Positions 1,150-22,890 are shown, numbered from the stretch's first letter. The stretch: DNA of 24,000 nt from an uncultured Gammaproteobacteria bacterium (GCA_964365755.1 CAYIRD010000001.1:3781-27780); one strand, 5' to 3'. Program-made: numbers and translations. The notes: a model not told the origin generated them from the letters alone.

Positions 1150-2457
1150 ATGAAAGAGCGTGTCTCTTCTTATGGCTCAGCTTCGGAACAAGCTCAAATT
1201 CCAATTCCCCGCGACAAGCGAGGCAGAATTCAGTGGAGATTACTAAAAGGCGATGTGAATCAGTTAAGAAGTGTGATTGAATTTCATGCTTCTAGTTTAA
1301 TCAGTGAAGGATCCCCGCTGAATAGGGAAGCTTTTAAAAAAGCTGGTCTTCATAGCATTGATGCTGCGATTACTCGATATTATCCAGATGGAATGCTAGG
1401 TTTAAAGATAAACCTCGGATTACAACCCGACAAAAGGCCCAAATCTTATTGGACAAATGAGACAATAGAGGAGGAGACTAGAATTTTTTTGGAAGGTAGA
1501 GCTGAAGGTAAAAATAGGTTAACTCAAAGATTGCTGCAAGGAAACGGAAGGTCAGATTTAGCATCAGCAATAACGAATCATTACCCGGGTGGAATGTACG
1601 TACTTAGAGAGAGACTCGGATATACCAACGAACGAAAACCAGTAGGCTACTGGACTCAAGAGAAAATTGAAGAGGAAGCCAGAGCGTTTTTCGAGCAAGA
1701 AGGAGAGTTAACTCAAAGCCTTTTGTTTCAAAAGGATCGACAAGATTTGAGTACTCAAATTAAACACTATCCGGGAGGAGCCACACAATTAAGAATTAAA
1801 ATAGGAGCAAAAATTTTAAGAAAAAATGGGTATTGGACAGAAGAACAAATAGAAAGTGATACCTCACAATTCTTGCAAGAATATGATGGAATAACAGAAA
1901 ATCTACTCACAATTCATAAAAGACAAGATCTTTTAGGGGCTATTCGTCAGTATTATCCTGGAGGGTTAATAAGATTGAAAGAGAGATTAGGCTTAATCCC
2001 TAAGAATAAGCCTGTTGGATACTGGACTACTGAAAGAATAGAAGAGGAAACCTTAGCTTTTTTGAATCAATTTGGAATACTAACCCCTGGAGAATTAAAA
2101 AAGAATGGAAGGCAAGACTTAATAGGAGCAATAAATGAACACTATCCCGGAGCCTTTACTAAATTGAAAGAACATTTAGGGATCGGGCCGGACAGGAGAT
2201 CTAATGGTCACTGGAGAAATCCTAAAAATGTAGAGGAAGAGGCCCGAATCCTTTTGGACAATGGTTATTCTATAGCAAATAAAGATCTAAGAGCAGAGCA
2301 TTCGGGTTTTATATCCGCTGTTAGGAAATATTATCCGGGAGGCTTAATTGCTTTGAGAGAAAAACTTGGAATTGCGAACGGAGAGAGATTAATTTTAATT
2401 TCTCCGGATGAAGCGAATGAACAATTGAGGAGGCTTTTGGAGGAAAAAGATGAATAA
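1150..2457 (+). CDS. Tandem-repeat protein paralogue 1 (435 aa, 6 repeats) with conserved C-terminal tail ISPDEANEQLRRLLEEKDE; function unknown
   Basis: Long ORF. The repeat-initial Trp falls at aa 29, 101, 168, 229, 292 and 355. The unit consensus is 'GYWTxExIEEEARxF...G.LT...L....RxDL..AI...YPGG...LKE+LGL'. The N-terminal motif is 'PRDKRGRIQW'. Confidence 0.85.
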   Translation: MKERVSSYGSASEQAQIPIPRDKRGRIQWRLLKGDVNQLRSVIEFHASSLISEGSPLNREAFKKAGLHSIDAAITRYYPDGMLGLKINLGLQPDKRPKSYWTNETIEEETRIFLEGRAEGKNRLTQRLLQGNGRSDLASAITNHYPGGMYVLRERLGYTNERKPVGYWTQEKIEEEARAFFEQEGELTQSLLFQKDRQDLSTQIKHYPGGATQLRIKIGAKILRKNGYWTEEQIESDTSQFLQEYDGITENLLTIHKRQDLLGAIRQYYPGGLIRLKERLGLIPKNKPVGYWTTERIEEETLAFLNQFGILTPGELKKNGRQDLIGAINEHYPGAFTKLKEHLGIGPDRRSNGHWRNPKNVEEEARILLDNGYSIANKDLRAEHSGFISAVRKYYPGGLIALREKLGIANGERLILISPDEANEQLRRLLEEKDE

Positions 2458-3799
2458 GGAAAGATCACAAATGACTGGCGAGCAATACTTTTTTTCAGAA
2501 TTACCCCGCAATAGAAGAGGTATCCGCTGGAGCGTTATTCCAGAGGCGAACAGGGAATTAATTATCGAAGGGGAAGCGAGAAAAATATACACTGAGACAG
2601 GAAGATTAAATAAAGGTGCATTTGAAGAGACAGGGAGACAAGATATAATTGGGGCAATTACTCTATATTATCCTGGAAGACTTACAGGTTTAAAGAAAAC
2701 CCTTGGGTTAACTGTACCTGCTACCAGCATACCCATTCAAAGTAGTCAGGAAGAAGATTTTATTGTTAGAGACGCAGGGGGAAGAGTTTTGTGGTCTAAG
2801 ATGGCGCAAGATCAAAGAATGAGGGTAATAGAACAAGAAGCCTTAAGTTTTGTCCAGTCTGGACACTTCACAGATAGTGAACTACGAACAAGAAATTATG
2901 GATTGTTAATGGCTGCAAAAACTTATTACCCTAATGGTATATTAGGTGTTCGAGAAAGGTTAAATTTAAAAGCCAAAAAGACTCCAAAGGGTTATTGGAC
3001 TTTAGAGAAAATAGAAAGAGAAGCAAGAGAGTTTCTTAGTACATATGGAGTAATATCGAGACGTGTTTTGTACCAACATAATCGTGGAGACTTAAGCGAG
3101 GCAGTTAAATCAAAATTTCCAGGTGGTTTTGTAGCGCTAAAAGAGAGACTTGGTGCGGTTCAAGCTAAACCGGGCGGGTTTTGGACAAAAGAAAGAATTG
3201 AACAAGAAGCCCTAGCTTATTATAAAGAGCGTGGTTTTTTAAGCGCAAGACATTTAATAAAAAATGGTCGAGGAGATCTAGCTATGGCAATTTCGCAGAA
3301 TTATCCTGGGAGGATGACGAAACTAAAAGAAGCTCTGGGATTAGACCCATTGCGGAAGGATAATTATTGGACTCAAGAGAAAATAGCAGAAGAGGCAAGA
3401 AAGTTTTACGAAACCGAAGGAGTTTTAACGGCTAAAGCACTGTATAGGATGGGTCGTTCCGACCTGGCATCGCAAATTAGTAGGTCTTACAAAGGAGGAT
3501 ATTTAGCGTTGAAGAGAGAATTGAGAATAGAATTAAGTAAAAGACCTGATGGATATTGGACTCCCGAAGCAATTGAAGCTGAAGTAAGAAATTTTTTAGA
3601 TAATGAAGGGACAATAAGCAGTGGCGTACTACATAGAAAAAAACCAGCCCTATATGCAGCAATAAGGCTTCACTATCCGGGGGGAAAATTAGCGCTTGAA
3701 TCTAAGCTTGGAATTATTAGGCAAGAAACAGAAATGACTGTTTCGCCGGATGAGGCGAATGAACAATTAAGAAGACTTTTGGAGGAAAAAGATGAATAA
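2450..3799 (+). CDS. Tandem-repeat protein paralogue 2 (449 aa, 6 repeats) with C-terminal tail VSPDEANEQLRRLLEEKDE; function unknown
   Basis: The ATG at 2450 overlaps the upstream stop in ATGAATAA, and GGAGG at 2439-2443 lies 6 nt upstream. It has the same repeat consensus, with N-terminal 'PRNRRGIRW'. Confidence 0.85.
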   Translation: MNKERSQMTGEQYFFSELPRNRRGIRWSVIPEANRELIIEGEARKIYTETGRLNKGAFEETGRQDIIGAITLYYPGRLTGLKKTLGLTVPATSIPIQSSQEEDFIVRDAGGRVLWSKMAQDQRMRVIEQEALSFVQSGHFTDSELRTRNYGLLMAAKTYYPNGILGVRERLNLKAKKTPKGYWTLEKIEREAREFLSTYGVISRRVLYQHNRGDLSEAVKSKFPGGFVALKERLGAVQAKPGGFWTKERIEQEALAYYKERGFLSARHLIKNGRGDLAMAISQNYPGRMTKLKEALGLDPLRKDNYWTQEKIAEEARKFYETEGVLTAKALYRMGRSDLASQISRSYKGGYLALKRELRIELSKRPDGYWTPEAIEAEVRNFLDNEGTISSGVLHRKKPALYAAIRLHYPGGKLALESKLGIIRQETEMTVSPDEANEQLRRLLEEKDE

Positions 3800-5657
3800 A
3801 GAATTCGAAGTCAGAACAGACCAACAATTTCAGAATCAGCAATCGTTAGATACTCCTCGAGACAGAAGGGGAAGAATAGACTGGCGCGCTTTAAACAGTA
3901 ATCCGGAACAACTTGTCGCGTATGTAGATTCAGAAATCGAGAGATTTCTTGCCGAGGGCCACCAGTTGTCTTATGTAGGGTTAGTTAAAGGCGAGAGAGA
4001 TTTTCTATACACCGGAGTTAAAAGATATTACCCAGGAGGCATGGATACATTAAAAGAAAAATTTGGGATTGTTAGTGTTACGAAACCAGGGCGGTACTGG
4101 TATGATTCACACAATATTGAGGAAGAAGCGAGAAAGTTGGCAGCAAAGGGTAGCGATTTATCACAACGTAGCCTTAAAGAATTTAGTATGCAATCTATGA
4201 GTTCTGCAGTTAGAAGATACCCAGGAGGTTTGCAAGCCCTTAGAGAAAAATTAGGCATCGCACAAGTAAGAGTTGCTAGAGGATATTGGCAAGTGCCTGC
4301 AAATATTGAGAAGGAGGCAAGAGCATGCCTTGGGAAAGGAATTGATATATCTCAGAAAAGCTTGAAAAAAGCAGGCTTATCCTCATTATCTTCAGCAATA
4401 GCACAAAAATATCCCGGCGGCACGAGCGCTTTAAGAGAAAAATTAGGATTACCAATAAGACGCCCAAATGGATACTGGCAGAATCCGGTAAATGTTGAAC
4501 ATGAAGTTTCAAAAATAATCGATGAAGAGGGAAATTTAACAGAGCCAATAATTAATAGACACAATCCTTCATTGATGCCCGCTATTTATAAACACTATGA
4601 AGGAGGATTGGCTGCGTTGAGAGCTAAATTTGGCCTAAAAGAGACAAAAAAAAAGACAGGATATTGGACAATGGAACAGATAGAATATGAGGCAAGAAAA
4701 TTTTACGAGGAGAGAGGACTATTAACCGGACCGGCTTTGATCACAAACAATAGACAGGACTTGTTGGGGGCTATCCAGAGCAAATACCCAGGAGCTCTGA
4801 TTGGTATTAAAAATAGACTAGAAATTCATTCTGTCAGGCCAAAGGGCTACTGGACACCAGATAACATTGAGAGAGAAGCAGCAAAATTTATAGCTCAACA
4901 TGAAGATTTAAACCATGTTTTGTTAAGGTCCAATAATTTAGCTGGATTCGCTTCTGCAATTTCAAGCTTTTATCCCGGAGGCATGAGAGGTCTACGAAGA
5001 AAACTTGGCTTAGAGGTAAAATCAAGGCCTCTTGAGTTTTGGACAATCGAGAATATAGTAGGAGAAGCAAGAAAAATTTATGAAACTGAAGGAGATTTAT
5101 CGCAAAAAATATTAGTTAGGCTGAGAAATCTTTCTCTTAATTACGCTATTCAAAAGAAGTATCCGGGTGGGATGGATGGATTAAAAAGAGATATAGGGAT
5201 TAGATCTAGCGAAAGACCTAATGGCTATTGGACTCCCGAAACTATTGAACAAGAAGCTAAAAAATTCTATTTAACACACGGGACATTGGACTCAAAAAGC
5301 ATGCGCGGAAAAGGTGAATCTGGCCTTTCATCCGCTATAAGCTCCAAATATCCAGGAGGTTTTAGGGCATTAAAAGGAAAATTCGGGGTTGCGATTAATC
5401 AGCGTCCTCCCAATTATTGGGTTAATCCTGAAAACATCGAACTTGAACTACAGAGATTTCTAGAAGCGGGAAATACATTTTCGGATGAAGATCTCAAAAG
5501 AGCGGGTTTGACAAGCTTGCGGTATGCAATAAGTGAGTATTACCCAGGAGGTATGAGTGCAATAAGAGAAAAGTATGGCCTTACAAAAGGCGAAAGGCAA
5601 GTTGTGATTTCCCCCGATGATGCGAATGAACAATTGAGAAGATTGATTGAAGATTGA
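3792..5657 (+). CDS. Tandem-repeat protein paralogue 3 (621 aa, 9 repeats) with C-terminal tail ISPDDANEQLRRLIED; function unknown
   Basis: It has the same ATGAATAA stop/start overlap and the same GGAGG as the previous junction. There are nine 'YW...YPGG' units and an N-terminal 'PRDRRGRIDW'. Confidence 0.85.
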   Translation: MNKEFEVRTDQQFQNQQSLDTPRDRRGRIDWRALNSNPEQLVAYVDSEIERFLAEGHQLSYVGLVKGERDFLYTGVKRYYPGGMDTLKEKFGIVSVTKPGRYWYDSHNIEEEARKLAAKGSDLSQRSLKEFSMQSMSSAVRRYPGGLQALREKLGIAQVRVARGYWQVPANIEKEARACLGKGIDISQKSLKKAGLSSLSSAIAQKYPGGTSALREKLGLPIRRPNGYWQNPVNVEHEVSKIIDEEGNLTEPIINRHNPSLMPAIYKHYEGGLAALRAKFGLKETKKKTGYWTMEQIEYEARKFYEERGLLTGPALITNNRQDLLGAIQSKYPGALIGIKNRLEIHSVRPKGYWTPDNIEREAAKFIAQHEDLNHVLLRSNNLAGFASAISSFYPGGMRGLRRKLGLEVKSRPLEFWTIENIVGEARKIYETEGDLSQKILVRLRNLSLNYAIQKKYPGGMDGLKRDIGIRSSERPNGYWTPETIEQEAKKFYLTHGTLDSKSMRGKGESGLSSAISSKYPGGFRALKGKFGVAINQRPPNYWVNPENIELELQRFLEAGNTFSDEDLKRAGLTSLRYAISEYYPGGMSAIREKYGLTKGERQVVISPDDANEQLRRLIED

Positions 5658-5682
5658 AACTATAGGTTTAAAATGTTAAAAT
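5654..5682 (+). promoter_or_regulatory. Possible internal promoter for the helicase-methyltransferase gene (TTGAAA-17 nt-TAAAAT)
   Basis: -35 TTGAAA at 5654-5659 overlaps the stop of the upstream gene. A 17-nt spacer precedes -10 TAAAAT at 5677-5682. It shares the string TTGAA(A)CTATAGG with the promoter at 1112. Confidence 0.3.
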
Positions 5683-5683
5683 T

Positions 5684-5703
5684 GGGCTGATTAACAGCCC
5701 TTT
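5684..5703 (+). terminator. Stem-loop GGGCTG-ATTAA-CAGCCC followed by TTT; either a weak intrinsic terminator/attenuator or a 5'-UTR hairpin
   Basis: A perfect 6-bp, GC-rich stem (5684-5689 / 5695-5700) has a 5-nt loop and a short T-tract (5701-5703). It sits in the only intergenic gap of the cluster. Confidence 0.3.
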
Positions 5704-5712
5704 CAATAAAAT

Positions 5713-8700
5713 ATGACATCAGAAATGTTAAAAGAAGGACAGCCACAGCCAGTGCAAGAAAATCACGATTCAAGAATCGCGGATTTGAATGCAGTGATTT
5801 TGAAGCCAGAAAAAATTCATGTTCTATTAAGTTTGAAACCGGGTGACCCCGGATACCCGTTTGATAATGGAGAAACATTTGAAGCAAATTATGAATCCTC
5901 AACCGATTTTGGATTGAAATATATCATGGCTAGATCTCTGCTTCAGGATGGTAAGTATGATAAACCACTTCTATTGCTTAGAAAGTTTATTCCAGCAGCG
6001 GATATAATTACTAAGCATAAAGAAGCTGAGGATCGCCAAAAGGCAGAAGAAGAAATTAAATCCGGCTTTGCCCAGGAATTGAAAGATAGATTACGGCTTC
6101 TACTTGTAGAAAAAGGACAAATTAAGCCTGGATCTGAAGAGGATAAAGATGCCCAGAAGGCTCTTATTCGCTTTGCGGAAAGAGATCAAATCCTAAGACA
6201 ACTAATGGAACTTTTACCTATCCATGTAGTAGGTGCCATCACGAGTGCTCAAATGTTTGAAAACGTAACAGACGAGGAAAAAAGAGAAAAATTACGGTCA
6301 TGGACAACTCGAGCACTCAGGCCCTATCTTGGGGATTTACTTGTTCGTAAACCTCAGGGCGATATTAATTTTCGAGATATTATAACATTGGTTCCTGCAA
6401 AGATTTTCGATGATTGGGATACTGCCACAGCGAATATTGTAAGAGATCACTTTGAAAGACTAGCGATGGGCATGTTCACAGAAAGTGAAGAAGAAGGGTT
6501 TAGTAGGCTGGAGGATGCTTTTAGATCAGAACAATCTGAATCTAAAAGGCAATTTCTGCAAGGGGTTCTTGATGAGTTTAAAGAGATTAGAGATGAAGAA
6601 ATTCCTCCAGTTTTCAAAGATCAAGTCGAGGGCTGGTTTTCCCCCACCTCACCTTTCCCATTGTTTCGTCAAAAATATTTTGTCCATGAATTCAAAAAAA
6701 CTCACAGGAAATTTTTAAACGGTGATACCGGAGCTACAAAAACGGCCTGTGCGGACCTTGCAATGGAGTCAGTTGGTGCCTCGCGCGTAACTATTTTTGG
6801 CCCAGCTAAGGCACGGAACACTTGGCCAAGAGAGGCTCGTAAGATTTACCAAGAGGACGCGCAGCCTGACGTTTTTGCTGTAATAAGCGCAAAGGATTTA
6901 GATAATCCCAGAATTAAGACAGCCAAGCAGGTTTATATATCGAGTGAATTAATGGCAAGAGCATGGTCCAACCCAGAATTGAATGCAACCATGACAGAAG
7001 CAGTCATTACTAATAGACATACAGATGGGATAATTTTAGACGAGTACGATGTTTTTCGTCATCAGAGTGCAAAGTCAACTAAGATGCTAAGGCACCTCGT
7101 AACTCAAATACAAGCTAATAACCAAGAGTTAGTACCAATGATACCTTTGACAGCAACACCTCTTTCATCATCCCTTAAAGATTTAGACATCTCGATGGCT
7201 CTTCTTTACCCTGAACGGTTCGCCTTTCCTAAGAGCAACCAAGATGGTAAATTTACTTTTAGTACTCTTGCTTTGATGGATCCAAAAATCGCTTATTCAC
7301 TTCTTTATGGCGAGCAACTTATGATTCAGTGGAGTCTTGAAGATCTTTTCGGGGAGAAAGCACCAAAACTTGATCCTAAAATAGTAAATCTTGAGATGAC
7401 TGCTTCTCAATATGAAATTTATCAATGGGTGCTTTCCCTACCTATAAGAAATCCGCTTGAGAAAATTGCTATGTTAAGAAGTGTTCTTCTTAATCCCAAT
7501 ATAATTAAAAAAACCATTAGGGAAAAGGGGTTAATACCAGAACCGGTTTATGATCCGGCAAAATTTGGGGAGCACTTGGAAGAGCTTTACAATTCATGGT
7601 GGGAATGGTTTGAAACTTCACCTGATAAATTTGAACCCTTTAGCGCCGACTGGATTGCAAAATTTGGAGATGGTCAATTTTTAATACAATTGTTTTTTGA
7701 TAATCGATTTGCGGATGGAATTGAATCGCTAGTTATGCGATACCCACACATCCGAACAGATTGGCAAGAAGCTAAATTCCCTTCTGTAAAATATGAGGCT
7801 ATCAAAAAGTTTTTGGAAAGAACAATAATTAAAACAGAAGATGGCTATGAATTCAGCCAAAAAACAATGATAGTTTCCCCTTTTCACAAAGAAGGTATTA
7901 CCAGGTGGTTTGATGATCCTTACATTAGACCGGAAGATCTTGATAATGATGCCTGGAGCTTATATGAGATGTTGCGCCTCGATTTTTCTAATTTGCCAAA
8001 TGAAGCATCTATTAACATTGATGGACAGAAATCTTTTTCAGCAAGAGACCGTGCGGCACAGGAATGGCGAGAATCAGGGATAAAGAATAACATAGTAGTT
8101 GCTTCTATGCGGTCAATTTATCAGAGTATGGATTGGGCAATTCGCGATACAGAAGATAATAAAAATATTGAAGCTATGAATGTTATATTCTTAGGCTGGC
8201 CTTGGGGATGGGATGAATTTAAGCAGATGTCTGGTCGTTTCTTGCGTCCTGGTCAAACCAAACCTGTTAATATATATATCTTAGAAACAGAGAACTCGAT
8301 TGACAGAGGGTTTAAAGACTTGGTTAAAATCAAAGACCTTCTATCGCAAATGGCTTTGGCAGGAGTTGAGCTCTCAAAAGAAGATCAAGTTTTTTTCAGC
8401 GACGCAACTTCTGCTAAAAGAATTTTAATCGAACATCCGAAAGTCGGCCAGCTTTTCCTTTACGATGCTTTTGCCAAATTAAGGGGTATGTCGGAAGAGG
8501 AGATGAGAATTGAGCTTGCCAAGGAAATTAACGGCAGAACTTTAGGATCTTGGCTTGCCGAATTTTATCTTGATGAAGGGAATGATGAATATCGAATAGT
8601 TGGAAACAACGCTGAATTAGTGAAAAATGTCGTACTTCGCGAACATCCCGAACATGTATTATCTGTTGGCTCAGGGACTTGTATTTTTGCAAGAAAAATT

Positions 8701-9624
8701 GCAAGAACCGGAATCCCAATAATAATTGATAATCTCGATATCAATCTTGAAGTATTACAGCTTGCCAAACAAAAAAATCCAGAAATAGGCAATGTTCTTC
8801 ATGAGAGTGCCACTAAGATTAGTAAAAGAGACGGAACTTATGATGCAATTGAATGTTCTTTTGTGCTCCCACTGATTAAGTTGGTTGACAATGGTAAAGT
8901 TCCAAACGATGCTACAGGTGCCGATAGAGTTAAGACATTACTTGAGATGAATCGTGTTCTTAAAATAGGTGGAACAGCAGTTCTAACATTTCCTGAAAAC
9001 TCTTTTAACGAGGAGTCTTTTGCGAGGTTTACCAAAGCTTTAACAAGGAATTTTGGTTTTCAAGTTGTTGGTCCAACAGGAGTTAGTTTTGCATCTGATA
9101 TAACTCCTAACAAAAAACTTGGATGGATTATAACTGTGAGAAAAATAAATAAACCGGATCTTTCAAATATAGATTCTGAAGATCTTATGTTCGAGACAGA
9201 CCGCGATAGAATTAGCCGTTATAAAGGCAAAAAAAATGGGGCTACCGTAAAAGTTATCGATTACCCGATTTTTGCGTCTAAGGAATTTAGGATTTATAAT
9301 CCATTAACACGTGAAGTCGCAACAAATAAAACTGATGTTGTTGATAAAATTACAGTTACTCCGCAAGAACTTGTTGAATTAATCAAGCCAAATCTTTCAG
9401 ATAGCCAAAGAGAAATTTGGGTGGAGGCCAGGCGTAAAATTGAAAGAGGACTTGATCAAAACTATTCGTTAGCAGAACAAACATTAGCTAGTATTTTTGC
9501 CCGCAGAAGGTTAGATGCTAGCGTCTGGAGTGATGAGGCAGTTAGAAAAATTCTAGATGCTGAAATAAGAAGACTAGTAAGAACATATCGCACAAGGGAG
9601 GCAGAATATGAGGGAACAATTTAG
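5713..9624 (+). CDS. SNF2-family helicase fused to a class I SAM-dependent methyltransferase (1303 aa)
   Basis: SNF2-like motifs: I 'GDTGATKT' (aa 337), Ia 'VTIFGPAKARNTW', II 'ILDEYDVF' (aa ~441), III 'LTATPLSSSLKDLDISMALLYPERF', C-lobe 'NIDGQKSFSARDRAAQEW', and VI-like 'QMSGRFLRPGQTKPVNIYIL' (aa 838). Methyltransferase motifs: motif I 'VLSVGSGTCIFARKIA' (aa 982), 'YDAIECSFVL', and 'MNRVLKIGGTAVLTFP' (aa ~1078). The ~330-aa N-terminal and ~170-aa C-terminal regions are unassigned. Confidence 0.75.
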   Translation: MTSEMLKEGQPQPVQENHDSRIADLNAVILKPEKIHVLLSLKPGDPGYPFDNGETFEANYESSTDFGLKYIMARSLLQDGKYDKPLLLLRKFIPAADIITKHKEAEDRQKAEEEIKSGFAQELKDRLRLLLVEKGQIKPGSEEDKDAQKALIRFAERDQILRQLMELLPIHVVGAITSAQMFENVTDEEKREKLRSWTTRALRPYLGDLLVRKPQGDINFRDIITLVPAKIFDDWDTATANIVRDHFERLAMGMFTESEEEGFSRLEDAFRSEQSESKRQFLQGVLDEFKEIRDEEIPPVFKDQVEGWFSPTSPFPLFRQKYFVHEFKKTHRKFLNGDTGATKTACADLAMESVGASRVTIFGPAKARNTWPREARKIYQEDAQPDVFAVISAKDLDNPRIKTAKQVYISSELMARAWSNPELNATMTEAVITNRHTDGIILDEYDVFRHQSAKSTKMLRHLVTQIQANNQELVPMIPLTATPLSSSLKDLDISMALLYPERFAFPKSNQDGKFTFSTLALMDPKIAYSLLYGEQLMIQWSLEDLFGEKAPKLDPKIVNLEMTASQYEIYQWVLSLPIRNPLEKIAMLRSVLLNPNIIKKTIREKGLIPEPVYDPAKFGEHLEELYNSWWEWFETSPDKFEPFSADWIAKFGDGQFLIQLFFDNRFADGIESLVMRYPHIRTDWQEAKFPSVKYEAIKKFLERTIIKTEDGYEFSQKTMIVSPFHKEGITRWFDDPYIRPEDLDNDAWSLYEMLRLDFSNLPNEASINIDGQKSFSARDRAAQEWRESGIKNNIVVASMRSIYQSMDWAIRDTEDNKNIEAMNVIFLGWPWGWDEFKQMSGRFLRPGQTKPVNIYILETENSIDRGFKDLVKIKDLLSQMALAGVELSKEDQVFFSDATSAKRILIEHPKVGQLFLYDAFAKLRGMSEEEMRIELAKEINGRTLGSWLAEFYLDEGNDEYRIVGNNAELVKNVVLREHPEHVLSVGSGTCIFARKIARTGIPIIIDNLDINLEVLQLAKQKNPEIGNVLHESATKISKRDGTYDAIECSFVLPLIKLVDNGKVPNDATGADRVKTLLEMNRVLKIGGTAVLTFPENSFNEESFARFTKALTRNFGFQVVGPTGVSFASDITPNKKLGWIITVRKINKPDLSNIDSEDLMFETDRDRISRYKGKKNGATVKVIDYPIFASKEFRIYNPLTREVATNKTDVVDKITVTPQELVELIKPNLSDSQREIWVEARRKIERGLDQNYSLAEQTLASIFARRRLDASVWSDEAVRKILDAEIRRLVRTYRTREAEYEGTI

Positions 9625-10144
9625 CGAACCACTTTCTCCACAAGAAAGAACAAGGCAACTTTTTTCTAAAAACTTTGATGACTTCGCGGAGAATCTTAGG
9701 GGCAAGGTTGTTGTTCTATTGGGAACAGATAAAAAAATTACATTAGATCTGGTTGAAGGATGGAATTTAGAATCAAACATGAAAACACACAAAAACTTTC
9801 TGCAACTTAATCCAGGAGACTGGGAAGCTAGCAGAATACCCATAAGGCAAATGCGTCAATCACTAATTATTGCGAAAGATGGAGACCGGGTTGGTGCATG
9901 TGCCAGAGTAGTTAGGGCTTCTTACTTTGATAATGATCAAGGACAGTTTATTCAAATGCCAAGGGAAGGCGACATTGCCAATTATTTAGGCCTTGGCGAT
10001 AACGAATTAGCAAGGCTGGTCTACATGGATGATTCGGATTCGCTGTATTTGTTACGAGGGGAACAAGGTTCACAAAATATAAGCCCCGATGAGGCAAACG
10101 AACAACTAAGAAGACTTTTGGAGGAAAGAGATAATGAGTCCTGA
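9608..10144 (+). CDS. 178-aa protein of unknown function carrying the shared C-terminal tail ISPDEANEQLRRLLEERDNES
   Basis: GGGAGG at 9596-9601 lies 6 nt before the ATG at 9608. The ORF overlaps the helicase gene by 17 nt. I recognise no domain. The tail is identical in peptide to those of the repeat proteins. Confidence 0.7.
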   Translation: MREQFSEPLSPQERTRQLFSKNFDDFAENLRGKVVVLLGTDKKITLDLVEGWNLESNMKTHKNFLQLNPGDWEASRIPIRQMRQSLIIAKDGDRVGACARVVRASYFDNDQGQFIQMPREGDIANYLGLGDNELARLVYMDDSDSLYLLRGEQGSQNISPDEANEQLRRLLEERDNES

Positions 10145-10556
10145 AGGGAGAAGAAGAGTAGAATTTACATTTAATACAAGACCTGATATTCTTGCTGGTC
10201 GTCTTATTGGAGTACGAATAAGGCTTGGTAATCAATTGGCCGAGATTGTGGGAACAGAGTGGTATCCTGCAGAAGAAAATACGAAAGGGACATATAGGAA
10301 AGTTTATGAATCAGAGCCGGGTACATTAGTCGCTACAGGATATAGAAATTCAGTCTTGCCCTTAGTTGCTGCAAAAGGCGGAGCTTGCGTTCTTATTCGC
10401 GAAATTGAGGTACGAAATCAGGAAGGAAAACTTGAAACTGTAAAAGGGCCTGGAAGAGTTGGAGAAAAATTGGGTTTGAAAAAAGGTGACGCGCGGAATC
10501 TAAGTATGGAAGATCCCCATGATTTAATATTTAGTTTGGTAGAGATCAATCGATAG
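10134..10556 (+). CDS. Truncated DNA-3-methyladenine glycosylase (MPG/AAG family)-like protein, 140 aa
   Basis: It aligns by eye to the MPG family. 'LAGRLIGV...AEIVGTEWY' matches 'LLG..L...GRIVETEAY', 'EPGTL' matches 'KPGTLYVY', 'GGACVLIREIE' matches 'GACVLLRALEP', and 'GPGRVGEKLGL' matches 'GPSKLCQALAI'. It is shorter than typical family members (about 190-220 aa from memory) and appears to lack the C-terminal segment. GGAGG at 10120-10124 lies 9 nt before the ATG. Confidence 0.6.
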   Translation: MSPEGRRRVEFTFNTRPDILAGRLIGVRIRLGNQLAEIVGTEWYPAEENTKGTYRKVYESEPGTLVATGYRNSVLPLVAAKGGACVLIREIEVRNQEGKLETVKGPGRVGEKLGLKKGDARNLSMEDPHDLIFSLVEINR

Positions 10557-10587: not shown

Positions 10588-10824
10588 TTGGGGTTTTTGT
10601 GGTTGACAAAGATTGTATGGATATCATACAATATCCCCATAAATACTACAGTTAATATTTCGATTCCAACGAAATTATATAAAGATGCAAAGAGATTTGC
10701 TGCCGAATATGGATATTCATCAATGAGCGAATTAATTAGGCAAGCTTTAAGAATAGAATTATATTCTGCTCCCGAGCTTGGGAGGAAAGGTAAAGCTCTC
10801 AAGAGAATTAATAAAAATATTTAA
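10588..10824 (+). CDS. Small ribbon-helix-helix (CopG/Arc-like) protein; start codon uncertain
   Basis: 'VNISIPTKLYKDAKRFAAEYGYSSMSELIRQALRIEL' fits the strand-helix-helix RHH pattern. The only in-frame canonical-type starts are TTGs at 10588, 10597 and 10603, upstream of or overlapping the promoter-like element. No ATG or GTG lies near the domain start. Confidence 0.4.
   Translation: MGFLWLTKIVWISYNIPINTTVNISIPTKLYKDAKRFAAEYGYSSMSELIRQALRIELYSAPELGRKGKALKRINKNI
10603..10632 (+). promoter_or_regulatory. Sigma70-like promoter TTGACA-18 nt-TACAAT
   Basis: Consensus -35 at 10603-10608 and -10 TACAAT at 10627-10632. It lies inside the 5' part of the listed 10588 ORF. It could drive the RHH ORF and/or a long ftsZ leader. 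Confidence 0.4.
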
Positions 10825-10903: not shown

Positions 10904-11998
10904 ATGTTAATAAAACCTCAGACTACTTCTTTTGCTAAAATTCGTGTAATTGGTGTTGGCGGTGGAGGAGGAAATGCTATCGGTACAATGATCTCTGACG
11001 GACAGATTAACGGTGTTGAATTTATGTCCATTAACACAGATGCCCAAGCACTTCTTAATAATCAGGCAAACATAAAAATTCAAATTGGAGAAAACTTGAC
11101 CCGCGGTCTTGGATCAGGTGGAGATCCTGAAGTAGGCGTTAAGGCAGCTGAAGAGTCTCGCGAAAAAATTAAGGAGATGCTTGAGGGTACAGATATGGTT
11201 TTCTTGACGGCAGGAATGGGCGGCGGAACGGGAACAGGAGCAACTCCCATTATTGCAGAAGTAGCAAAAGACGTAGGTGCACTAACCGTCTCCGTTGTTA
11301 CAAAGCCATTTCTCTTTGAAGGTACACGCAGAATGGTTGCGGCAGAAGAAGGAATAGAAAGATTAAAAGAGAAGGTCGATACATTAATTGTTATTCCAAA
11401 TCAGAGAATTCTTGAAGTGATAGACAAAAAATTGTCCCTTCTTGAAGCATTTAGGGTCGCTGATTCAGTTCTTAATCACGGGGTGCAAGGAATCTCCGAT
11501 TTAATAACTATCCCGGGGTTGATTAACGTTGATTTTGCAGATGTCAAAACAATTATGACAAATGCAGGATCTGCATTAATGGGAATTGGGATTGGAGTAG
11601 GTGAGAATAGAGCGCAATTGGCGGCTAGGCAGGCAACATCCTCGCCGTTACTTGAGGTCTCAATGGAGGGCGCACGTGGAGTTCTCTACAACATTATTGG
11701 GGGAACAGACCTTTCAATGTCTGAGGTCAATGAAGCATCAAAAATTATTGCATCTGCGGCAGATCCCGATGCAAATATTATTTTTGGTGCAACAATTGAT
11801 GAGAATCTTCATGATCAAATCCGCATTACGGTTATCGCAACCGGTTTTGATGAGTCAAGAAGAAAGCTTCAGGAGTTAGTCGAGAAACCGGAAGAGATAT
11901 TGGCAGAAAATGGTGACCAAGGCCCGCCATCAACGTCTCCCGAAGACGAAAAAGAATCAATCTTTGACATCCCCGCCTTTTTACGCCAAAAGAATTAA
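10904..11998 (+). CDS. ftsZ: Cell division protein FtsZ (364 aa)
   Basis: It carries 'GVGGGGGNA', the tubulin signature 'GGGTGTGA', the T7-loop region 'VIPNQRIL', an acidic disordered linker, and the C-terminal conserved peptide '[11 protein letters not shown]'. Confidence 0.97.
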
Positions 11999-12004
11999 TT
12001 TACC

Positions 12005-12295
12005 CTATTTATATTCCCTGCTTGAACCAGAATGTTTGGAGAGTGCAAATAAAATAATAATTTGCTTCTTAGATTCGTCAAAATCCCAGATAATTCGAAG
12101 GTCACCAGTTATCCAGCTGCTCCATTTTTTCCCAAAATTCCGAGTATTTACTTTATGACTTTTTAAGGAAGGATAGAACGGATCGTTTTTTATTAATCTC
12201 AATACTTTTTTCGTCCGTTTTTCAAATTCTTTATTACCCTTAATTATTGATTTATAAGTGGAAGGGAACGTGCTTGCAAAATGGAGAGCGTACAT
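12005..12295 (-). CDS. Type II toxin, RelE/StbE/YafQ-family mRNA interferase-like (96 aa)
   Basis: 'PSLKSHKV...WSSWITGDLRIIWDFDESKKQIIILFALSKH' matches the RelE/YafQ-type pattern. It lies 2 nt downstream of a small RHH-type ORF, the classical antitoxin-toxin order. Confidence 0.75.
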   Translation of the reverse strand: MYALHFASTFPSTYKSIIKGNKEFEKRTKKVLRLIKNDPFYPSLKSHKVNTRNFGKKWSSWITGDLRIIWDFDESKKQIIILFALSKHSGSSREYK

Positions 12296-12297
12296 GC

Positions 12298-12558
12298 TTA
12301 AAGGCTTGCGAGATATCTATCAAGTTCTTCATCAGTTTTGATGGCTGTATATCGTCCATTTTTATAATCTTCCAATCCCTTTGCAATCACTTTTTCGGTT
12401 TCTTCATCTACTAAAGGTATATCTTCGATCTCTTTTTTATATTTTTCGGCAAGGGCAACCTTTATAATTTCGGCCTCAGATAACACACGATATTTGCTTC
12501 TCAAAAAAGCTAACACTTCAGCAAGCTCTGGTGTTTTATTTAATCTTATTTGTGCCAT
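12298..12558 (-). CDS. Type II antitoxin, RHH-type (87 aa from the ATG at 12558)
   Basis: 'MAQIRLNKTPELAEVLAFLRSKYRVLSEAEIIKVALAE' is strand-helix-helix and is followed by an acidic C-terminal region. I chose the ATG at 12558 over the listed 12594 start because a consensus promoter occupies 12566-12594. Confidence 0.7.
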   Translation of the reverse strand: MAQIRLNKTPELAEVLAFLRSKYRVLSEAEIIKVALAEKYKKEIEDIPLVDEETEKVIAKGLEDYKNGRYTAIKTDEELDRYLASL

Positions 12559-12565
12559 GCTACCT

Positions 12566-12594
12566 ATATTAGGGCATTTACTACCTAATGTCAA
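12566..12594 (-). promoter_or_regulatory. Promoter of the toxin-antitoxin operon (TTGACA-17 nt-TAATAT on the minus strand)
   Basis: The reverse complement reads TTGACA (12594-12589), a 17-nt spacer, then TAATAT (12571-12566). Seven nt later comes the ATG at 12558, so the mRNA is predicted to be leaderless. Confidence 0.55.
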
Positions 12595-12703: not shown

Positions 12704-13594
12704 GTGACTTCACCAGAAACAGACGGTAATCAAAGTCCCCAAATTGATGCTCAAAAAGAACGTGTAGGGCAAACATTATTTCAGGTAAGATTTGGCTTAG
12801 GCCCTCATACTGTCAGATTTAGTTATTGGCATGAGACGATAGTTCAGGACCTAAACATTTTTTTTCAACCCTCAAACGCAACCCAACGTAATATTTTCTT
12901 TTGTGAAGATGCTCTCGGGTCTCAAACGTATGAGAATACTTTAAAAGCTGCTTATAAGCATTACGGCAAATATTCTACAGCTTACGAATTTGCAAGATTA
13001 TATCGTCTTCGTGATGGATTTCCTCCCTCTGCAACAGTTGAAGCTAGCTATAATAGTCAACTTCGGTCCTTGCATCCGCTTGCATCTGATGGTTCTGAGT
13101 TTTTACATAAAGTGTTTGGAGTTATAGATGAGATAGTAGATAAAAATGGCATTCTAATTGATGTAGAAACAGAGAAGAGAAAAGATCCTAAAGAGCGAGA
13201 GCAAATGGAAAGAATACTCATGCAAGGACAATCCCCACGGCCAAAGTCCGTTGAGGAATTTCGTCAACATGCTATTGGATTGTGGAATATGAAGAGGGTA
13301 AGGGATAGAAAAATCACAGATGATCTTGTTGAATTATATAAAAAAGCAATTGGGAGAAACGAAGCCACAAAAGTTTATGTTTCTCTAGGACAAAATCACT
13401 CAGGCGTAAACGATCTGCTAGCTGCCAAGTTATACAAGAAACCCTCTTTCGAACCGTCAGTAACTTTGGGAGAATTTCAACCACCACGAAGAGAAATATT
13501 CCCACATGCCATTTCCCTATTAGACTTAGGAAAACCAATTTCTTCTGAGCAATGGCAGGCTTTATATGAGGAAGCCATGATGCCTCCGAGATGA
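12704..13594 (+). CDS. Hypothetical protein (296 aa); very weak motif resemblance to the Tiki/TraB/GumN/ChaN superfamily
   Basis: Long ORF behind its own promoter. 'FGLGPHTV' and 'KVYVSLGQNHSGVNDLL' loosely resemble the GTxH and GxxH motifs of that superfamily. This is unverified and should not be relied on. Confidence 0.6.
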   Translation: MTSPETDGNQSPQIDAQKERVGQTLFQVRFGLGPHTVRFSYWHETIVQDLNIFFQPSNATQRNIFFCEDALGSQTYENTLKAAYKHYGKYSTAYEFARLYRLRDGFPPSATVEASYNSQLRSLHPLASDGSEFLHKVFGVIDEIVDKNGILIDVETEKRKDPKEREQMERILMQGQSPRPKSVEEFRQHAIGLWNMKRVRDRKITDDLVELYKKAIGRNEATKVYVSLGQNHSGVNDLLAAKLYKKPSFEPSVTLGEFQPPRREIFPHAISLLDLGKPISSEQWQALYEEAMMPPR

Positions 13595-14408: not shown

Positions 14409-17400
14409 ATGCAATGGATTATTAGATCGAGCTTAAGACTTCAATTTATCTTACTTATTCTTGCTGCAGCTCTTGTGGTTTTTGGTATCCGGGAACTTCG
14501 GACTATGCCCATTGATGTCTACCCTGAGTTTAATCCGCCGATGGTGAACGTTCAGACTGAAGCCCTCGGGCTTTCCGCAGCGGAAGTGGAAGCTCTTGTT
14601 ACTGTTCCACTCGAGGCAGATCTTCTTAATGGTGTAGCATGGGTTGATCAAATTTACTCTGAGTCGGTCACTGGTCTATCGTCAATTCACCTCATCTTCA
14701 AACCCGGGACAGATCCTATTCGGGCACGTCAAATGGTGCAGGAGCGTCTGACGCAGACGTATGCTTTGCCAAATGTCTCAAAACCTCCCACGATGCTCCC
14801 GCCCCTATCGACCACGAGCCGCGTCATGATGGTTGGACTTTCCTCGGATAAACTTTCCCTTATTGAAATAGGAGTATTGGCCCGCTGGAATATTACGCCC
14901 CGCCTGATGGGGGTGCCTGGAGTTGCTAATGTGGCTATTTGGGGACAGAGAGAGCGGCAATTGCAGGTACAAGTGGATCCGGAGAAATTATATGCTCAGG
15001 GCGTTACCCTTTCACAAGTTATCAAAACAACAGGAGAAGCCTTGTGGTTTTCGCCATTAAGCTTTCTAGAATCATCGTCGCCCGGAACAGCCGGGTGGAT
15101 TGACACTCCCAATCAAAGGCTTGGTATCCAACACGAGCTGCCCATCTCTGAGCCTTCGGATCTGGCACAGGTGGTTCTCGCGGACAACACGGAGTTAAGA
15201 CTCGGTGATGTCGCAAAGGTGGTGGAAGATCATCAGCCGCTCATTGGGGAAGCTATCTTGAAGCGCGGTCCAGGACTTTTGCTCGTCATTGAAAAATTTC
15301 CTGGGGCAAACATAAAAGAAGTTACACGTAGGGTAGAGGAAGCACTTGTTGCCATGCGGCCCGGTCTTACCGGTATAGATATTGATACTACTATTTTCCG
15401 TCCTGCTACCTACATCGAGAAGGCAACTCACAATCTCACCCTGATGTTGCTTGTTGGCACTATGCTTGCGATTTTGGTTTTTTATTTTTTTTTCTTTGAG
15501 TGGCGTATAGCACTCATCAGCGCGGCTTCGATGCTTTTATCATTACTAACAGCAGGGTTCGTGCTTTATCTTCGCGGGACAACTTTCAATACGATGACTC
15601 TTTTGGGATTCATTATCGCAATCGGCGTTGTCATGGACGATGCCGTTATCGGCGTAGAAAATATCTATCGGCGTTTTCATCAGAATGGTAAAAAGAAGCG
15701 TAGCCAGATGTTTGTTACTTCGGTTATTTTAGAAGCGACTAGTGAGTTGCAAGGACCATTAGTTTTCACAACGCTGATGATTCTTCTCACAGTGTCACCA
15801 GTATTTTTTATGCAAGGAGAGTCTGGTGCATTTTTTCAACCATTTGCCACATCTTTTGTGTTGGCAGTCTTGAGCTCTACGATAATTGCTCTTATCTTAA
15901 CCCCAGTATTAAGCCTGACTTTTTCAAGAGCTTTCCTCAAGCGGCACGAATCACCTCTTGTGAGTTGGTTGAACCTAAGCCTGAGGAGACTTCTTGTGCC
16001 GGCTTTTAAGGTGCCGAAACAAACATACATCATAGTCGTTGTCGCCGTTTTTGTAGGTTTGTCAGTTTTACCAACTCTTAGTGTTTCACTCGTTCCAAAG
16101 TTTAGGCAGACAGATCTATTGATCAAATGGGAGGGCCCACCTGGCACATCCCGTCTTGAAATGAGCCGGATTATAAACCAGGCAAGTCAAGAGTTACGGG
16201 AAGTTACTGGTGTCACAAACGTCGGTGCTCATCTCGGGCGAGCCATCACTGGGGATAAAGTTGCCGGAATCAATTCCGCTGATCTTTGGATCAGTCTTGA
16301 TTCTCAAGCTGACCTAGACATAGCAACAAAAAACATTCAGGAAGTAATTGACGGTTACCCCGGGCTTTTTCATCAGGTCCAGACGTACCAACCAAAAAGA
16401 ACGCGAGAAGCACTCACGGATGAAAATGAAACCCTAAGCGTTCGGATTTATGGTCATGATTTGAAAGTTCTTGAAAGACTTGGGAAGGAAGTTAGGAAGG
16501 CAATTTCAGGGATCGACGGTGTAGTTGCCACTGCGGAAGAACCACAAGTCGAGGAACCGCAGGTGCAAATCAAAGTGGATCTTAAGAGAGCTCAAGCTTA
16601 TGGGCTCAAACCAGGCGATATACGTCGACAAGCAACCACATTACTGTCAGGCATCCAAGTCGGCAGTCTTTATGAAGACCAAAAAGTATTTGAAGTAGTG
16701 GTATGGGGCGAACCTGAAATCCGTAATAGCCTTACCGATATTCGTGATCTAATGATTGAAACACCCGCTTTCGCACAAGTGCCTTTGGAGGAGTTGGCAG
16801 AAGTTAGTATCGCGCCTGCTCCAATTATCATTAAACGCGACAGTGTTTCCCGTTTTCTTGATGTTGAAGCTCGTGTGCCTGGTCGTGATCTTGTTTCGGT
16901 CGCGGCTGATATAAGAAGTAAACTCAAGTCAGTCGAATTTCCTCTTGAATACCATATGGAGGTTCTCGGTGCATCTATTGAGAAACAAGCGTCGCGCGCG
17001 CGTATGTTGGTAGTTATCGTTACCGCGGCAGTCGGGATTTTTCTTCTCATGCAGGCAGCCTTTGGTAGCTGGCGTTTGGCAATAGTATCTCTTCTGAGTT
17101 TACCTATGGCGCTTGTGGGGGGTGTTTTGGCAGCTTTTCTAACCGGTGGTATTCTATCGCTCGGTTCACTAGTTGGATTTCTTACAATACTTGGAATTGC
17201 AGTAAGAAACAGTATCTTACTCATCAGTCACTACCAGCATCTTGAGAGACTTGAAGGCCAAACCTTTGGTCCCAAACTCATCCTGCGTGGTACTCGCGAA
17301 CGACTAGCACCAATTCTTGCGACTGCACTCGCATTAGGGCTTTTTCTTCTTCCAGCAGTACTATTTGGTAATATTACTGGGGTTGAGATAGTGCAACCGG

Positions 17401-17501
17401 CGGCAATTGTCATTTTTGGTGGGCTTATCACCTCGACTTACCTCACCCTCCTCGTTTTACCGGTCTTATACTTACGTTTTGGAAAAATCCACCATGGATG
17501 A
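14409..17501 (+). CDS. RND-superfamily efflux permease, paralogue 1 (1030 aa)
   Basis: The size and 12-TM layout fit an RND permease. The N-terminus 'IRSSLRLQFILLIL...PIDVYPEFNPPMVNVQTEALGLSAAEVEALVTVPLE' is typical. The TM4 'AIGVVMDDAVIGVEN' carries the Asp-Asp proton-relay pair, and 'GFLTILGIAVRNSILLISHY' is also present. Confidence 0.9.
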   Translation: MQWIIRSSLRLQFILLILAAALVVFGIRELRTMPIDVYPEFNPPMVNVQTEALGLSAAEVEALVTVPLEADLLNGVAWVDQIYSESVTGLSSIHLIFKPGTDPIRARQMVQERLTQTYALPNVSKPPTMLPPLSTTSRVMMVGLSSDKLSLIEIGVLARWNITPRLMGVPGVANVAIWGQRERQLQVQVDPEKLYAQGVTLSQVIKTTGEALWFSPLSFLESSSPGTAGWIDTPNQRLGIQHELPISEPSDLAQVVLADNTELRLGDVAKVVEDHQPLIGEAILKRGPGLLLVIEKFPGANIKEVTRRVEEALVAMRPGLTGIDIDTTIFRPATYIEKATHNLTLMLLVGTMLAILVFYFFFFEWRIALISAASMLLSLLTAGFVLYLRGTTFNTMTLLGFIIAIGVVMDDAVIGVENIYRRFHQNGKKKRSQMFVTSVILEATSELQGPLVFTTLMILLTVSPVFFMQGESGAFFQPFATSFVLAVLSSTIIALILTPVLSLTFSRAFLKRHESPLVSWLNLSLRRLLVPAFKVPKQTYIIVVVAVFVGLSVLPTLSVSLVPKFRQTDLLIKWEGPPGTSRLEMSRIINQASQELREVTGVTNVGAHLGRAITGDKVAGINSADLWISLDSQADLDIATKNIQEVIDGYPGLFHQVQTYQPKRTREALTDENETLSVRIYGHDLKVLERLGKEVRKAISGIDGVVATAEEPQVEEPQVQIKVDLKRAQAYGLKPGDIRRQATTLLSGIQVGSLYEDQKVFEVVVWGEPEIRNSLTDIRDLMIETPAFAQVPLEELAEVSIAPAPIIIKRDSVSRFLDVEARVPGRDLVSVAADIRSKLKSVEFPLEYHMEVLGASIEKQASRARMLVVIVTAAVGIFLLMQAAFGSWRLAIVSLLSLPMALVGGVLAAFLTGGILSLGSLVGFLTILGIAVRNSILLISHYQHLERLEGQTFGPKLILRGTRERLAPILATALALGLFLLPAVLFGNITGVEIVQPAAIVIFGGLITSTYLTLLVLPVLYLRFGKIHHG

Positions 17502-22889: not shown

Positions 22890-22890
22890 T

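Follow-up and report, generated by a model that had tools for sequence, protein, structure and literature searches.

The gene at the centre of this analysis, here called the hub, lies in a stretch of 24,000 nucleotides (GCA_964365755.1 CAYIRD010000001.1:3781-27780, labelled as an uncultured Gammaproteobacteria bacterium) that is referred to below as the window. Its product combines a SNF2-like ATPase with a small-molecule-type class I methyltransferase, and its gene stands at the centre of a mobile operon, apparently undescribed, of candidate phyla radiation (CPR) bacteria. Three repeat proteins encoded upstream and two small proteins encoded downstream, the latter with the fold of the DNA glycosylase AAG/MPG, belong to the hub's conserved cassette. 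The finding is thus a conserved cassette of at least four genes with peptide-coded modularity and AAG-like subunits, a variant of helicase-methyltransferase systems that has a realistic chance of being categorically new.

A motor and a methyltransferase in one polypeptide

The hub open reading frame (ORF) is uninterrupted, starts with ATG and encodes 1303 aa (Table 1). The start codon is ambiguous within 5713-5727: the longest ORF begins at 5713, and the public protein P0001 begins at Met5 and has 1299 aa. A database search rendered 32 homologues of 1263 to 1484 aa (34 to 53% identity, 89 to 99% query cover), one of them labelled Candidatus Daviesbacteria, which together with the window's own protein form a family of 33. 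An earlier note on this DNA, made from the sequence alone, had considered that the fusion might be an artefact joining two genes. The 32 other full-length homologues keep the same fusion of ATPase and methyltransferase, and therefore it is genuine. A frameshift or assembly error as its source was ruled out by the 33 full-length proteins plus identical operons in independent assemblies.

All residue conservation in the hub was read from the 33-sequence alignment. Within the ATPase core, of superfamily 2 (SF2)/SNF2-like type, K343 and T344 of motif I (GDTGATKT) and D443 and E444 of motif II (DE(S/Y)D) were invariant, and motif III (LTATP) was invariant or nearly so. Motif VI had the SNF2 form QxxGRFxRPGQ (also QMxGRFxRPGQ), with Q838, G841 and R842 invariant and R845 nearly so, and ∼215 aa were inserted between lobes 1 and 2, as expected by the SNF2 criterion. 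Motif V (VVASMxSVxESMDW) was divergent, the usual GG being missing, in agreement with the degenerate motif V that the earlier note had seen in an otherwise SNF2-style core.

The Pfam family SNF2-rel_dom matched aa 397 to 575 of the window hub just under its cut-off (E = 6.5e-5; 22.6 bits against 24.9). When each of the 33 hubs was scanned at E ≤ 0.01, it matched 19 (best E, 3.4e-8) and the DEAD family 22. The top PHROG match was phrog_62 ("DNA helicase"), covering aa 314 to 501 (E = 5.6e-19), and PADLOC gave a weak match to DrmD (E = 0.004). A single-sequence search of the PDB yielded nothing useful, and a profile search returned generic methyltransferases and 1z63, which aligned to the ATPase core (E = 0.033), and nothing else. 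By its motifs, the hub ATPase is a SNF2-like motor with the catalytic motifs intact.

For its part, the methyltransferase domain was matched by Pfam Methyltransf_11 at aa 983 to 1090 (E = 1.9e-9; 38.5 bits against a cut-off of 21.2), a match found in 32 of the 33 family members, whereas NCBIfam gave only weak matches to small-molecule methyltransferases (UbiE/MenG, BioC, CpaM). The S-adenosylmethionine (SAM)-binding residues G986, G988 and D1009 were invariant, and the conserved residues of the domain were mostly SAM-binding ones. Given this invariance, SAM binding by the domain is probable, and so is catalytic activity. The assignment made in the earlier note, a small-molecule-type class I methyltransferase with a SAM motif I, is thus borne out by a family match above cut-off and by the invariance of the motif residues; the strings quoted there were located at aa 981 to 989 (VLSVGSGTC), at aa 1082 to 1094 (VLKIGGTAVLTFP) and at about aa 797 to 810 (VVASMRSIYQSMDW).

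A model of aa 921 to 1303 was built with AlphaFold2 (AF2) using the family alignment (predicted local distance difference test [pLDDT], 84.6) and was compared with the PDB by Foldseek, the check that the note had proposed. There were 690 matches with an E value of 0.001 or less, and all 50 of the 50 listed were class I SAM-dependent transferases (methyltransferases and spermidine synthases). The nearest folds among the matches listed were UbiG (5e-8), nucleomethylin/Rrp8, Bud23/WBSCR22, spermidine synthases, TleD and NodS, all of them generic class I enzymes whose substrates are small molecules or, in rRNA, the ring nitrogens of purines. Bud23, Rrp8/nucleomethylin and UbiG gave the best fold matches to the methyltransferase core among those listed (E = 5e-8 to 2e-7), but identity was 16 to 19%, none of the three is fused to a helicase, and Bud23 needs Trm112. 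The viral fold library BFVD also yielded generic class I methyltransferases, with DNA methyltransferases ∼10-fold lower; since this list too was generic, the fold alone leaves the substrate unsettled.

The absence of the tetrapeptide (D/N/S)PP(Y/F/W), noted previously for the window protein (whose sole PP is indeed that of EIPPVF), extended to the family: in a regular-expression scan of the whole proteins it was conserved at no position in any of the 33 hubs. The same kind of scan found no conserved PC dipeptide in the 33, and PF00145 (DNA_methylase) gave no match. None of the hubs matched N6_Mtase, N6_N4_Mtase, MethyltransfD12, Eco57I or MT-A70 in Pfam. A canonical N6-adenine, N4-cytosine or C5-cytosine DNA methyltransferase, the finding that would have overturned the earlier description, was therefore seen neither as a motif nor as a Pfam family. 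A hidden DNA methyltransferase, or one with permuted motif order, was ruled out by the whole-protein scan together with Pfam. The protein methyltransferase families PrmA, PrmC, CheR and PCMT gave no match in the Pfam and NCBIfam scans. The methyl target may be something other than N6 of adenine or N4 of cytosine (a DNA purine ring nitrogen, RNA or protein), which is consistent with all the evidence.

The two ends of the hub, left unassigned in the earlier note, matched no family or fold here either (∼325 aa at the N terminus and ∼160 aa at the C terminus). The N-terminal region was conserved and acidic, with no match in Pfam, NCBIfam or the PDB and no invariant acidic catalytic residues in the alignment. 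The C-terminal region had no structural match, the Foldseek alignments being confined to the methyltransferase core.

A mobile cassette assembled around the hub

In the window, the cassette occupies positions 1150 to 10556 as a tightly packed operon with overlapping stops and starts (that of R1 with R2, for example) and the hub at its centre. It sits between ftsA (20-1075) and ftsZ (10904-11998), which are normally neighbours in the division and cell wall (dcw) cluster. Because it parts these two genes, the 9.4-kb cassette, together with a small ORF, is an insertion into a core operon. No attachment-site-like direct repeats of at least 9 nt flanked it, scans of the window region for promoters and terminators remained at background level, and no tRNA genes were found.

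All fetchable related loci were compared, amounting to 13 distinct loci from Daviesbacteria, Gottesmanbacteria and other Patescibacteria metagenome-assembled genomes (MAGs) and from metagenomes. The gene order was constant in the 13: one to four variable basic adaptors upstream, the hub, and then, with one exception, a small protein of 140 to 210 aa with the AAG/MPG fold (11 of the 12 loci with sequence past the hub). Genome positions varied, namely, upstream of rpoB, next to secA, between rnc/AbiEii and rpsP, and by a tyrosine integrase. The neighbours were often toxin-antitoxin or abortive infection (Abi) genes, such as AbiEii, Fic/MazE or a YafQ-like toxin, as well as an integrase. Since positions differ and such genes are frequent neighbours, the cassette has the pattern of an accessory, horizontally mobile element. 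Its distribution was patchy, with 33 clusters for the hub and 107 for the small protein, and it is so far confined to uncultivated CPR bacteria (Microgenomates-type). Two cassette MAGs, L008 and L013, are labelled "uncultured Gammaproteobacteria bacterium", all other named cassette records being Patescibacteria/CPR; these two labels look like misassignments. No relatives were seen on viral contigs. In tblastn searches of phages, the hub matched only a 448-aa helicase of Blautia phages, and adaptor R3 matched nothing.

Most adaptors were built from a 62-aa, three-helix-like repeat, with the consensus YWTxExIExEAxxFxxxxGxLTxxxLxxxxRxDLxxAIxxxYPGGxxxLKExLGL over about that length, on a basic body (pI, 9.3 to 9.7). 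Matches of the hidden Markov model (HMM) of the repeat were confined to tail-bearing adaptors. The repeat may resemble the Pfam HNH_repeat (homing-endonuclease-associated repeat), a likeness that the Pfam scan did not reproduce. The N termini of R1, R2 and R3, like those of the L008 and L009 adaptors, carried a conserved PRDxRGRIxW before a degenerate first repeat. Other adaptors joined unrelated bodies to the tail of their locus (those of L005, L013, L016 and L017 and part of those of L011 and L018). Tail-bearing adaptors at 4447-9970 of L005, 5863-7836 of L013 and 1010-2911 of L017 had bodies of 600 to 657 aa without the 62-aa repeat, and the repeat-free bodies of the scanned L005 adaptors gave no Pfam match. 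These repeat-free, tail-bearing proteins are a second adaptor type.

What these unrelated bodies had in common was the C terminus. In the window, the tail SPD(E/D)ANEQLRRL(L/I)E(E/D) was found on R1, R2, R3 and the 178-aa small protein, while the hub and the 140-aa small protein lacked it; in no locus did the hub carry a tail. Every other tail locus had its own version, common to its adaptors and small protein: TDLE(R/K)LLE in L001, EANxQIEALLKD in L003, EEANEDLDRLLE in L018, AxxALxxYF in L005, DLD(R/K)FF in L015 and DANxFFDxL in L013, with ADQWLxEML on the adaptors and EQANQALTDLING on the small protein of L011. Within the common tail, (D/E)-A-(N/D) was nearly invariant. An all-against-all comparison of the C termini of 308 ORFs of at least 80 aa in the fetched loci showed that, in 11 of the 13 loci, tails were shared essentially by hub-flanking ORFs only; a tail-type adaptor was present in the remaining two as well. 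The tails were acidic, with a net charge of -2 to -4, and that of AAG-like protein 1 was modelled as an amphipathic helix (aa 160 to 176). Because the copies in the window differ almost solely by synonymous substitutions (Table 1), the tail peptide is, by its codons, under purifying selection and not a recent copy. The tail is probably a docking peptide whose receptor is encoded alongside it; the sole candidate for this receptor is the hub, where the basic methyltransferase and C-terminal region or the N-terminal domain could form the site.

The neighbouring MPG-like protein mentioned in the earlier note is real by its fold, with a weaker indication from the profile, and there are two such paralogues rather than one, with 24% identity to each other. 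They were elusive in routine searches. A word-index homology search with the small protein returned itself or three proteins only, a profile of 10 sequences did not find AAG, and Pfam and NCBIfam gave no match on 10 members, except for one faint NCBIfam match of small protein 2 to MPG (E = 0.025). An exhaustive profile search yielded 107 representative clusters, all of stand-alone proteins of 71 to 239 aa, and 92 of the 107 cluster sequences served as the alignment for an AF2 model and an HMM. The model of small protein 1 reached a pLDDT of 93.9, and its sole significant Foldseek match in the PDB was human alkyladenine DNA glycosylase (AAG, 1ewn_A; E = 5.2e-4, probability 1.00, template modelling [TM] score 0.50, 164 columns), with 13% identity. 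The five top matches of the HMM among all PDB sequences were likewise human AAG (E = 0.014 to 0.034). In the alignment, the profile segment ffsqdvdeLaeaLqgrvi faced FFDQPAVPLARAFLGQVLV of human AAG, the E-x-aromatic motif faced ETEAY (E125, Y127), Y61 faced H136, mqPGdlwaf faced MKPGTLYVY, and GaCVrieRA faced GACVLLRA. Residues E50, W52 and Y61 of small protein 1 thus align to E125, Y127 and H136 of AAG; small protein 2 has TEWY in place of TEAY and keeps E42 and Y44. By fold, and less firmly by profile, the small proteins are true but divergent AAG/MPG homologues. They have in common with human AAG (1ewn, 1bnk) the fold and the motifs FFxQ...LA..LLG, E-x-aromatic, PG(T/D)L(Y/W) and GACV..RA, but they are shorter, have a variable Glu, mostly carry the putative docking tail and occur adjacent to the hub only. 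An extension of at least 18 aa past the barrel was present in 72 of 92 family members, and 40 members matched a strict regular expression of the tail motif; tail-less small proteins, such as the 140-aa one of the window, end directly after the barrel.

The two aromatic pocket columns were aromatic or His in 99 to 100% of the family, and both window paralogues keep the catalytic Glu (E50 and E42). AAG selects cationic N-methylpurines by aromatic stacking, and its E125Q form, a classical mutant, binds while being catalytically dead; 1ewn itself is this mutant, as seen in the HMM alignment. With a pocket so conserved and a Glu column that varies across the family, base binding (as a reader or flipper) is a likelier shared function than excision, which may be kept in some members, including those of the window.

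Table 1. Features of the cassette in the window
Feature	Coordinates	Strand	Basis or remarks
Adaptor R1, 435 aa, basic, 6 repeat copies, tail	1150-2457	+	Repeat dissection; repeat HMM E 1.4e-138; body pI 9.3
R1 tail-coding segment PDEANEQLRRLLEEKD	2404-2451	+	Direct-repeat family D4
Adaptor R2, 449 aa, ∼6-7 repeats, tail	2450-3799	+	Repeat dissection, repeat HMM, pI
R2 tail-coding segment	3746-3793	+	Against R1 copy: 4 substitutions, 4/4 synonymous
Adaptor R3, 621 aa, 9-10 repeats, tail variant DDANEQLRRLIED	3792-5657	+	Repeat dissection, repeat HMM, pI
R3 tail-coding segment	5613-5654	+	Direct-repeat family
Hub protein, SNF2-like ATPase and Methyltransf_11, no tail	5713-9624	+	ORF, Pfam, homologues
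Hub N-terminal region, aa 1-325, conserved, acidic	5713-6687	+	Alignment columns, pI 5.1
SF2/SNF2-like ATPase core, aa 326-900	6688-8412	+	Lobe 1 motifs I, II, III; lobe 2 motifs V, VI
Class I SAM methyltransferase, aa 976-1145, Methyltransf_11 type	8638-9147	+	Motif I VGSGTC; ribose-binding acid D1009
Hub C-terminal region, aa 1146-1303	9148-9621	+	AF2 model: two beta-hairpins and four-helix region
AAG/MPG-fold small protein 1, 178 aa, tail	9608-10144	+	Model, Foldseek, PDB profile search
AAG-like protein 1 tail-coding segment	10085-10132	+	Against R2 copy: 5 substitutions, 4/5 synonymous
AAG/MPG-fold small protein 2, 140 aa, tail-less paralogue	10134-10556	+	Family profile E 3.1e-43

Possible functions of the proposed complex

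No paper on this architecture was found in the literature, and the closest known systems differ from it in definite ways. DISARM (DrmD with DrmMI/DrmMII) and BREX-related systems likewise combine a SNF2-type ATPase and a methyltransferase in an accessory cluster, but their methyltransferases are canonical N6-adenine or C5 enzymes encoded by separate genes, whereas here a Methyltransf_11 domain is fused to the motor; DrmA, DrmB (DUF1998), DrmC/DrmE, PglZ and BrxC were all missing from the cassette. DarB-type proteins of phages and plasmids such as P1 also carry an SF2 helicase and a methyltransferase in one polypeptide; these are virion-packaged anti-restriction factors with an N6-adenine DNA methyltransferase. 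Type I restriction-modification follows a similar logic, with variable specificity subunits, a methyltransferase and an ATP-dependent translocase of double-stranded DNA (dsDNA) in one complex. In contrast, HsdS target-recognition domains, the NPPF site of HsdM and the HsdR nuclease were not found here by Pfam, NCBIfam or PADLOC, and assembly appears to proceed through a C-terminal peptide common to unrelated modules. The top profile match of the methyltransferase domain was PADLOC mads_2 mad2 (E = 1.4e-11), limited to the Rossmann core; the six other proteins submitted (five of the cassette and the 296-aa ORF at 12704-13594) had no PADLOC match. In MADS, the methylation-associated defence system, Mad2 is described as an N6-methyltransferase, and Mad6, Mad7 and Mad8 are mandatory (bioRxiv 10.1101/2023.03.30.534895). 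The last three are missing from the cassette.

Taken in general terms, the cassette could encode a complex that is assembled through the tails, acts on DNA and has a role of the conflict type, a reading that we consider a serious possibility while rating it somewhat short of probable. The docking tail would recruit interchangeable modules onto the hub, and the repeat adaptors would bind and choose the DNA. The SNF2 motor would then track along or distort the duplex, and the AAG-like module would take up a flipped purine in the aromatic pocket conserved in its family. The acceptor methylated by the methyltransferase would be non-canonical, a ring nitrogen of a purine being the most plausible one, and the AAG-like module would read that base or, where the Glu is present, excise it. 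The outcome would be the discrimination of, or an attack on, foreign DNA, in a manner similar to restriction-modification and free of nuclease. By analogy with their relatives, dsDNA would be the most probable substrate of the complex: translocation by SNF2 enzymes takes place on dsDNA, which is also where AAG flips bases. A purine ring nitrogen would be the most coherent acceptor, because there is no DPPY-type site, the fold neighbours include Bud23 and Rrp8 (which make m7G and m1A, respectively, in rRNA) and the AAG pocket is specialised for cationic N-methylpurines; the earlier note had suggested such atoms (N3-A or N7-G) among its options. The accessory distribution, the variable insertion sites and the toxin, Abi and integrase neighbours make a role against foreign DNA likely.

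A more specific version would be a nuclease-free "methyl-lesion" immunity, in which the motor-borne methyltransferase writes a cationic N-methylpurine (of the m7G, m3A or m1A type) in dsDNA at sites chosen by the adaptors, and AAG-fold subunits bearing the same docking peptide read or excise it. Spelled out to this extent, we consider the proposal rather unlikely.

Several observations speak against the proposed complex. The glutamate column equivalent to E125 of AAG is E in 30%, Q in 25% and K in 14% of the small-protein family. With E in only 30%, the function that the family conserves cannot be excision, and the lack of family-wide conservation of the catalytic Glu weakens a simple "methylate then excise" scheme. 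Pfam at E ≤ 10 gave only noise on eight adaptors (such as HAMP_2 and PYRIN), and the one hint of a helix-turn-helix in the 62-aa repeat was its top PDB sequence match, a designed engrailed homeodomain with a nonsignificant E value of 0.095. The fold comparison does not discriminate between methyltransferases of small molecules, RNA and DNA. We know of no system for the enzymatic methylation of DNA at N7 of guanine or N3 of adenine. The hub is a candidate receptor for the tail, and the putative defence role is read from context; the cassette contains no nuclease and matches no PADLOC system, the mad2 match being at the domain level.

Part of the same evidence can be arranged differently. If the logic were that of restriction-modification, the methyltransferase would mark self at a non-canonical atom, the glycosylase would be the effector, removing bases that are unmodified or foreign wherever the adaptors direct it, and the motor would act as HsdR does. 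The catalytic Glu-x-aromatic of both window paralogues, the resemblance of several variable adaptors to specificity subunits and the accessory, mobile context would all suit it; nevertheless, the Glu is missing in ∼70% of the small-protein family and AAG-type enzymes recognise damaged or modified purines and not normal ones, so that we allow it a slim chance. Similarly slim is the prospect of an RNA or transcription target, with a RapA/HepA-like ATPase, an rRNA/tRNA-type methyltransferase and a small beta-barrel that binds RNA. It would accord with the rRNA enzymes Bud23 and Rrp8 among the nearest methyltransferase folds and with the one locus directly upstream of rpoB/rpoC, but that position is not conserved, the match of the small protein is specifically to AAG, a DNA glycosylase, and not to RNA-binding barrels, SNF2 enzymes are established dsDNA translocases, and a system for RNA maturation would not be expected to be accessory in its distribution.

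The methyltransferase might instead modify protein (the docked adaptors or the hub itself) or be a non-catalytic SAM sensor that gates the motor, responding, for example, to SAM depletion by phage SAM lyases. A domain of small-molecule/protein type whose conserved residues are mostly SAM-binding, and a common tail whose nearly invariant (D/E)-A-(N/D) presents adaptors to the hub, would be in keeping with this idea; we hold it improbable, given that no PrmA, PrmC, CheR or PCMT signature was found and that it leaves the AAG-like module and the motor unexplained. A housekeeping role in repair, with the SNF2 motor aiding a divergent AAG glycosylase to scan for alkylation damage as in remodeler-assisted base excision repair, appears highly improbable. 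Despite the AAG homology and the location of the window cassette inside the dcw cluster, with other copies among housekeeping genes, such a role is at odds with the patchy distribution (33 hub and 107 small-protein clusters) and variable insertion sites, the frequent adjacency of integrase and toxin-antitoxin/Abi genes, the highly variable adaptor sets and a catalytic Glu that is not conserved, and it has no place for a SAM-dependent methyltransferase.

Neighbouring genes and significance

The gap between the cassette and ftsZ holds a 78-aa ORF (10588-10824, plus strand) that is ribbon-helix-helix-like (VNISIPTKLYKDAKRFAAEYGYSSMSELIRQALR) and whose true start is probably internal; from its sequence it could be a cassette regulator or an orphan antitoxin. 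At the start of this ORF is the site that, within the region, best resembles a sigma-70 promoter (10603-10632, 11 of 12 positions). Downstream of ftsZ, on the strand opposite to the cassette, a YafQ-like type II toxin (12005-12295, minus strand; Pfam E = 4.6e-5, below cut-off) and the 98-aa ORF upstream of it (12298-12594, minus strand) form a probable toxin-antitoxin pair. They are followed by the 296-aa ORF (12704-13594, plus strand, GTG start), with no family match in Pfam, PADLOC or PHROGs. Farther on are tandem full-length AcrB/resistance-nodulation-division (RND) transporter genes (14409-17501 and 17407-20610, plus strand), then a gene for an HlyD-type adaptor (21606-22889) and one for an ATP-binding cassette (ABC) ATPase (22879-23604). 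With its listed TTG start, the second AcrB gene overlaps the first by 95 nt; the true start is probably farther downstream. The GC content of the transporter genes was 0.46 to 0.49, compared to 0.37 to 0.42 in the cassette. In L001 (Daviesbacteria), a stand-alone 262-aa methyltransferase, TehB/Methyltransf_23-like (5530-6318), lies directly upstream of the single 1205-aa adaptor and just after a MazE/Fic pair; its gene was absent from the other loci seen.

To our knowledge, the known systems that combine a helicase and a methyltransferase (Type I/III restriction-modification, DISARM, BREX and DarB) all use canonical amino- or C5-DNA methyltransferases. Here, the partners of the SNF2 motor are a methyltransferase incapable of such chemistry and AAG-fold proteins, the known relatives of which are binders of N-methylpurines. 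Should the substrate be DNA, a so far unknown enzymatic modification of DNA would be indicated, together with its writer and reader. The methyl-lesion proposal, if true, would give the first example of ring nitrogens of DNA purines being methylated by an enzyme, and likewise of a DNA-modification machine whose modules are assembled through docked peptides. Whatever the substrate, a single locus-specific C-terminal peptide is found on repeat adaptors, on non-repeat adaptors and on AAG-like proteins, and the tail is a testable case of peptide-coded modular assembly, in the manner of dockerin-cohesin or cargo-loading peptides, in a nucleic-acid enzyme. The repeat adaptors, for their part, might be programmable binders. 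The defence repertoire of CPR bacteria is poorly known, and it is in uncultivated members of this group that the cassette has so far been found.

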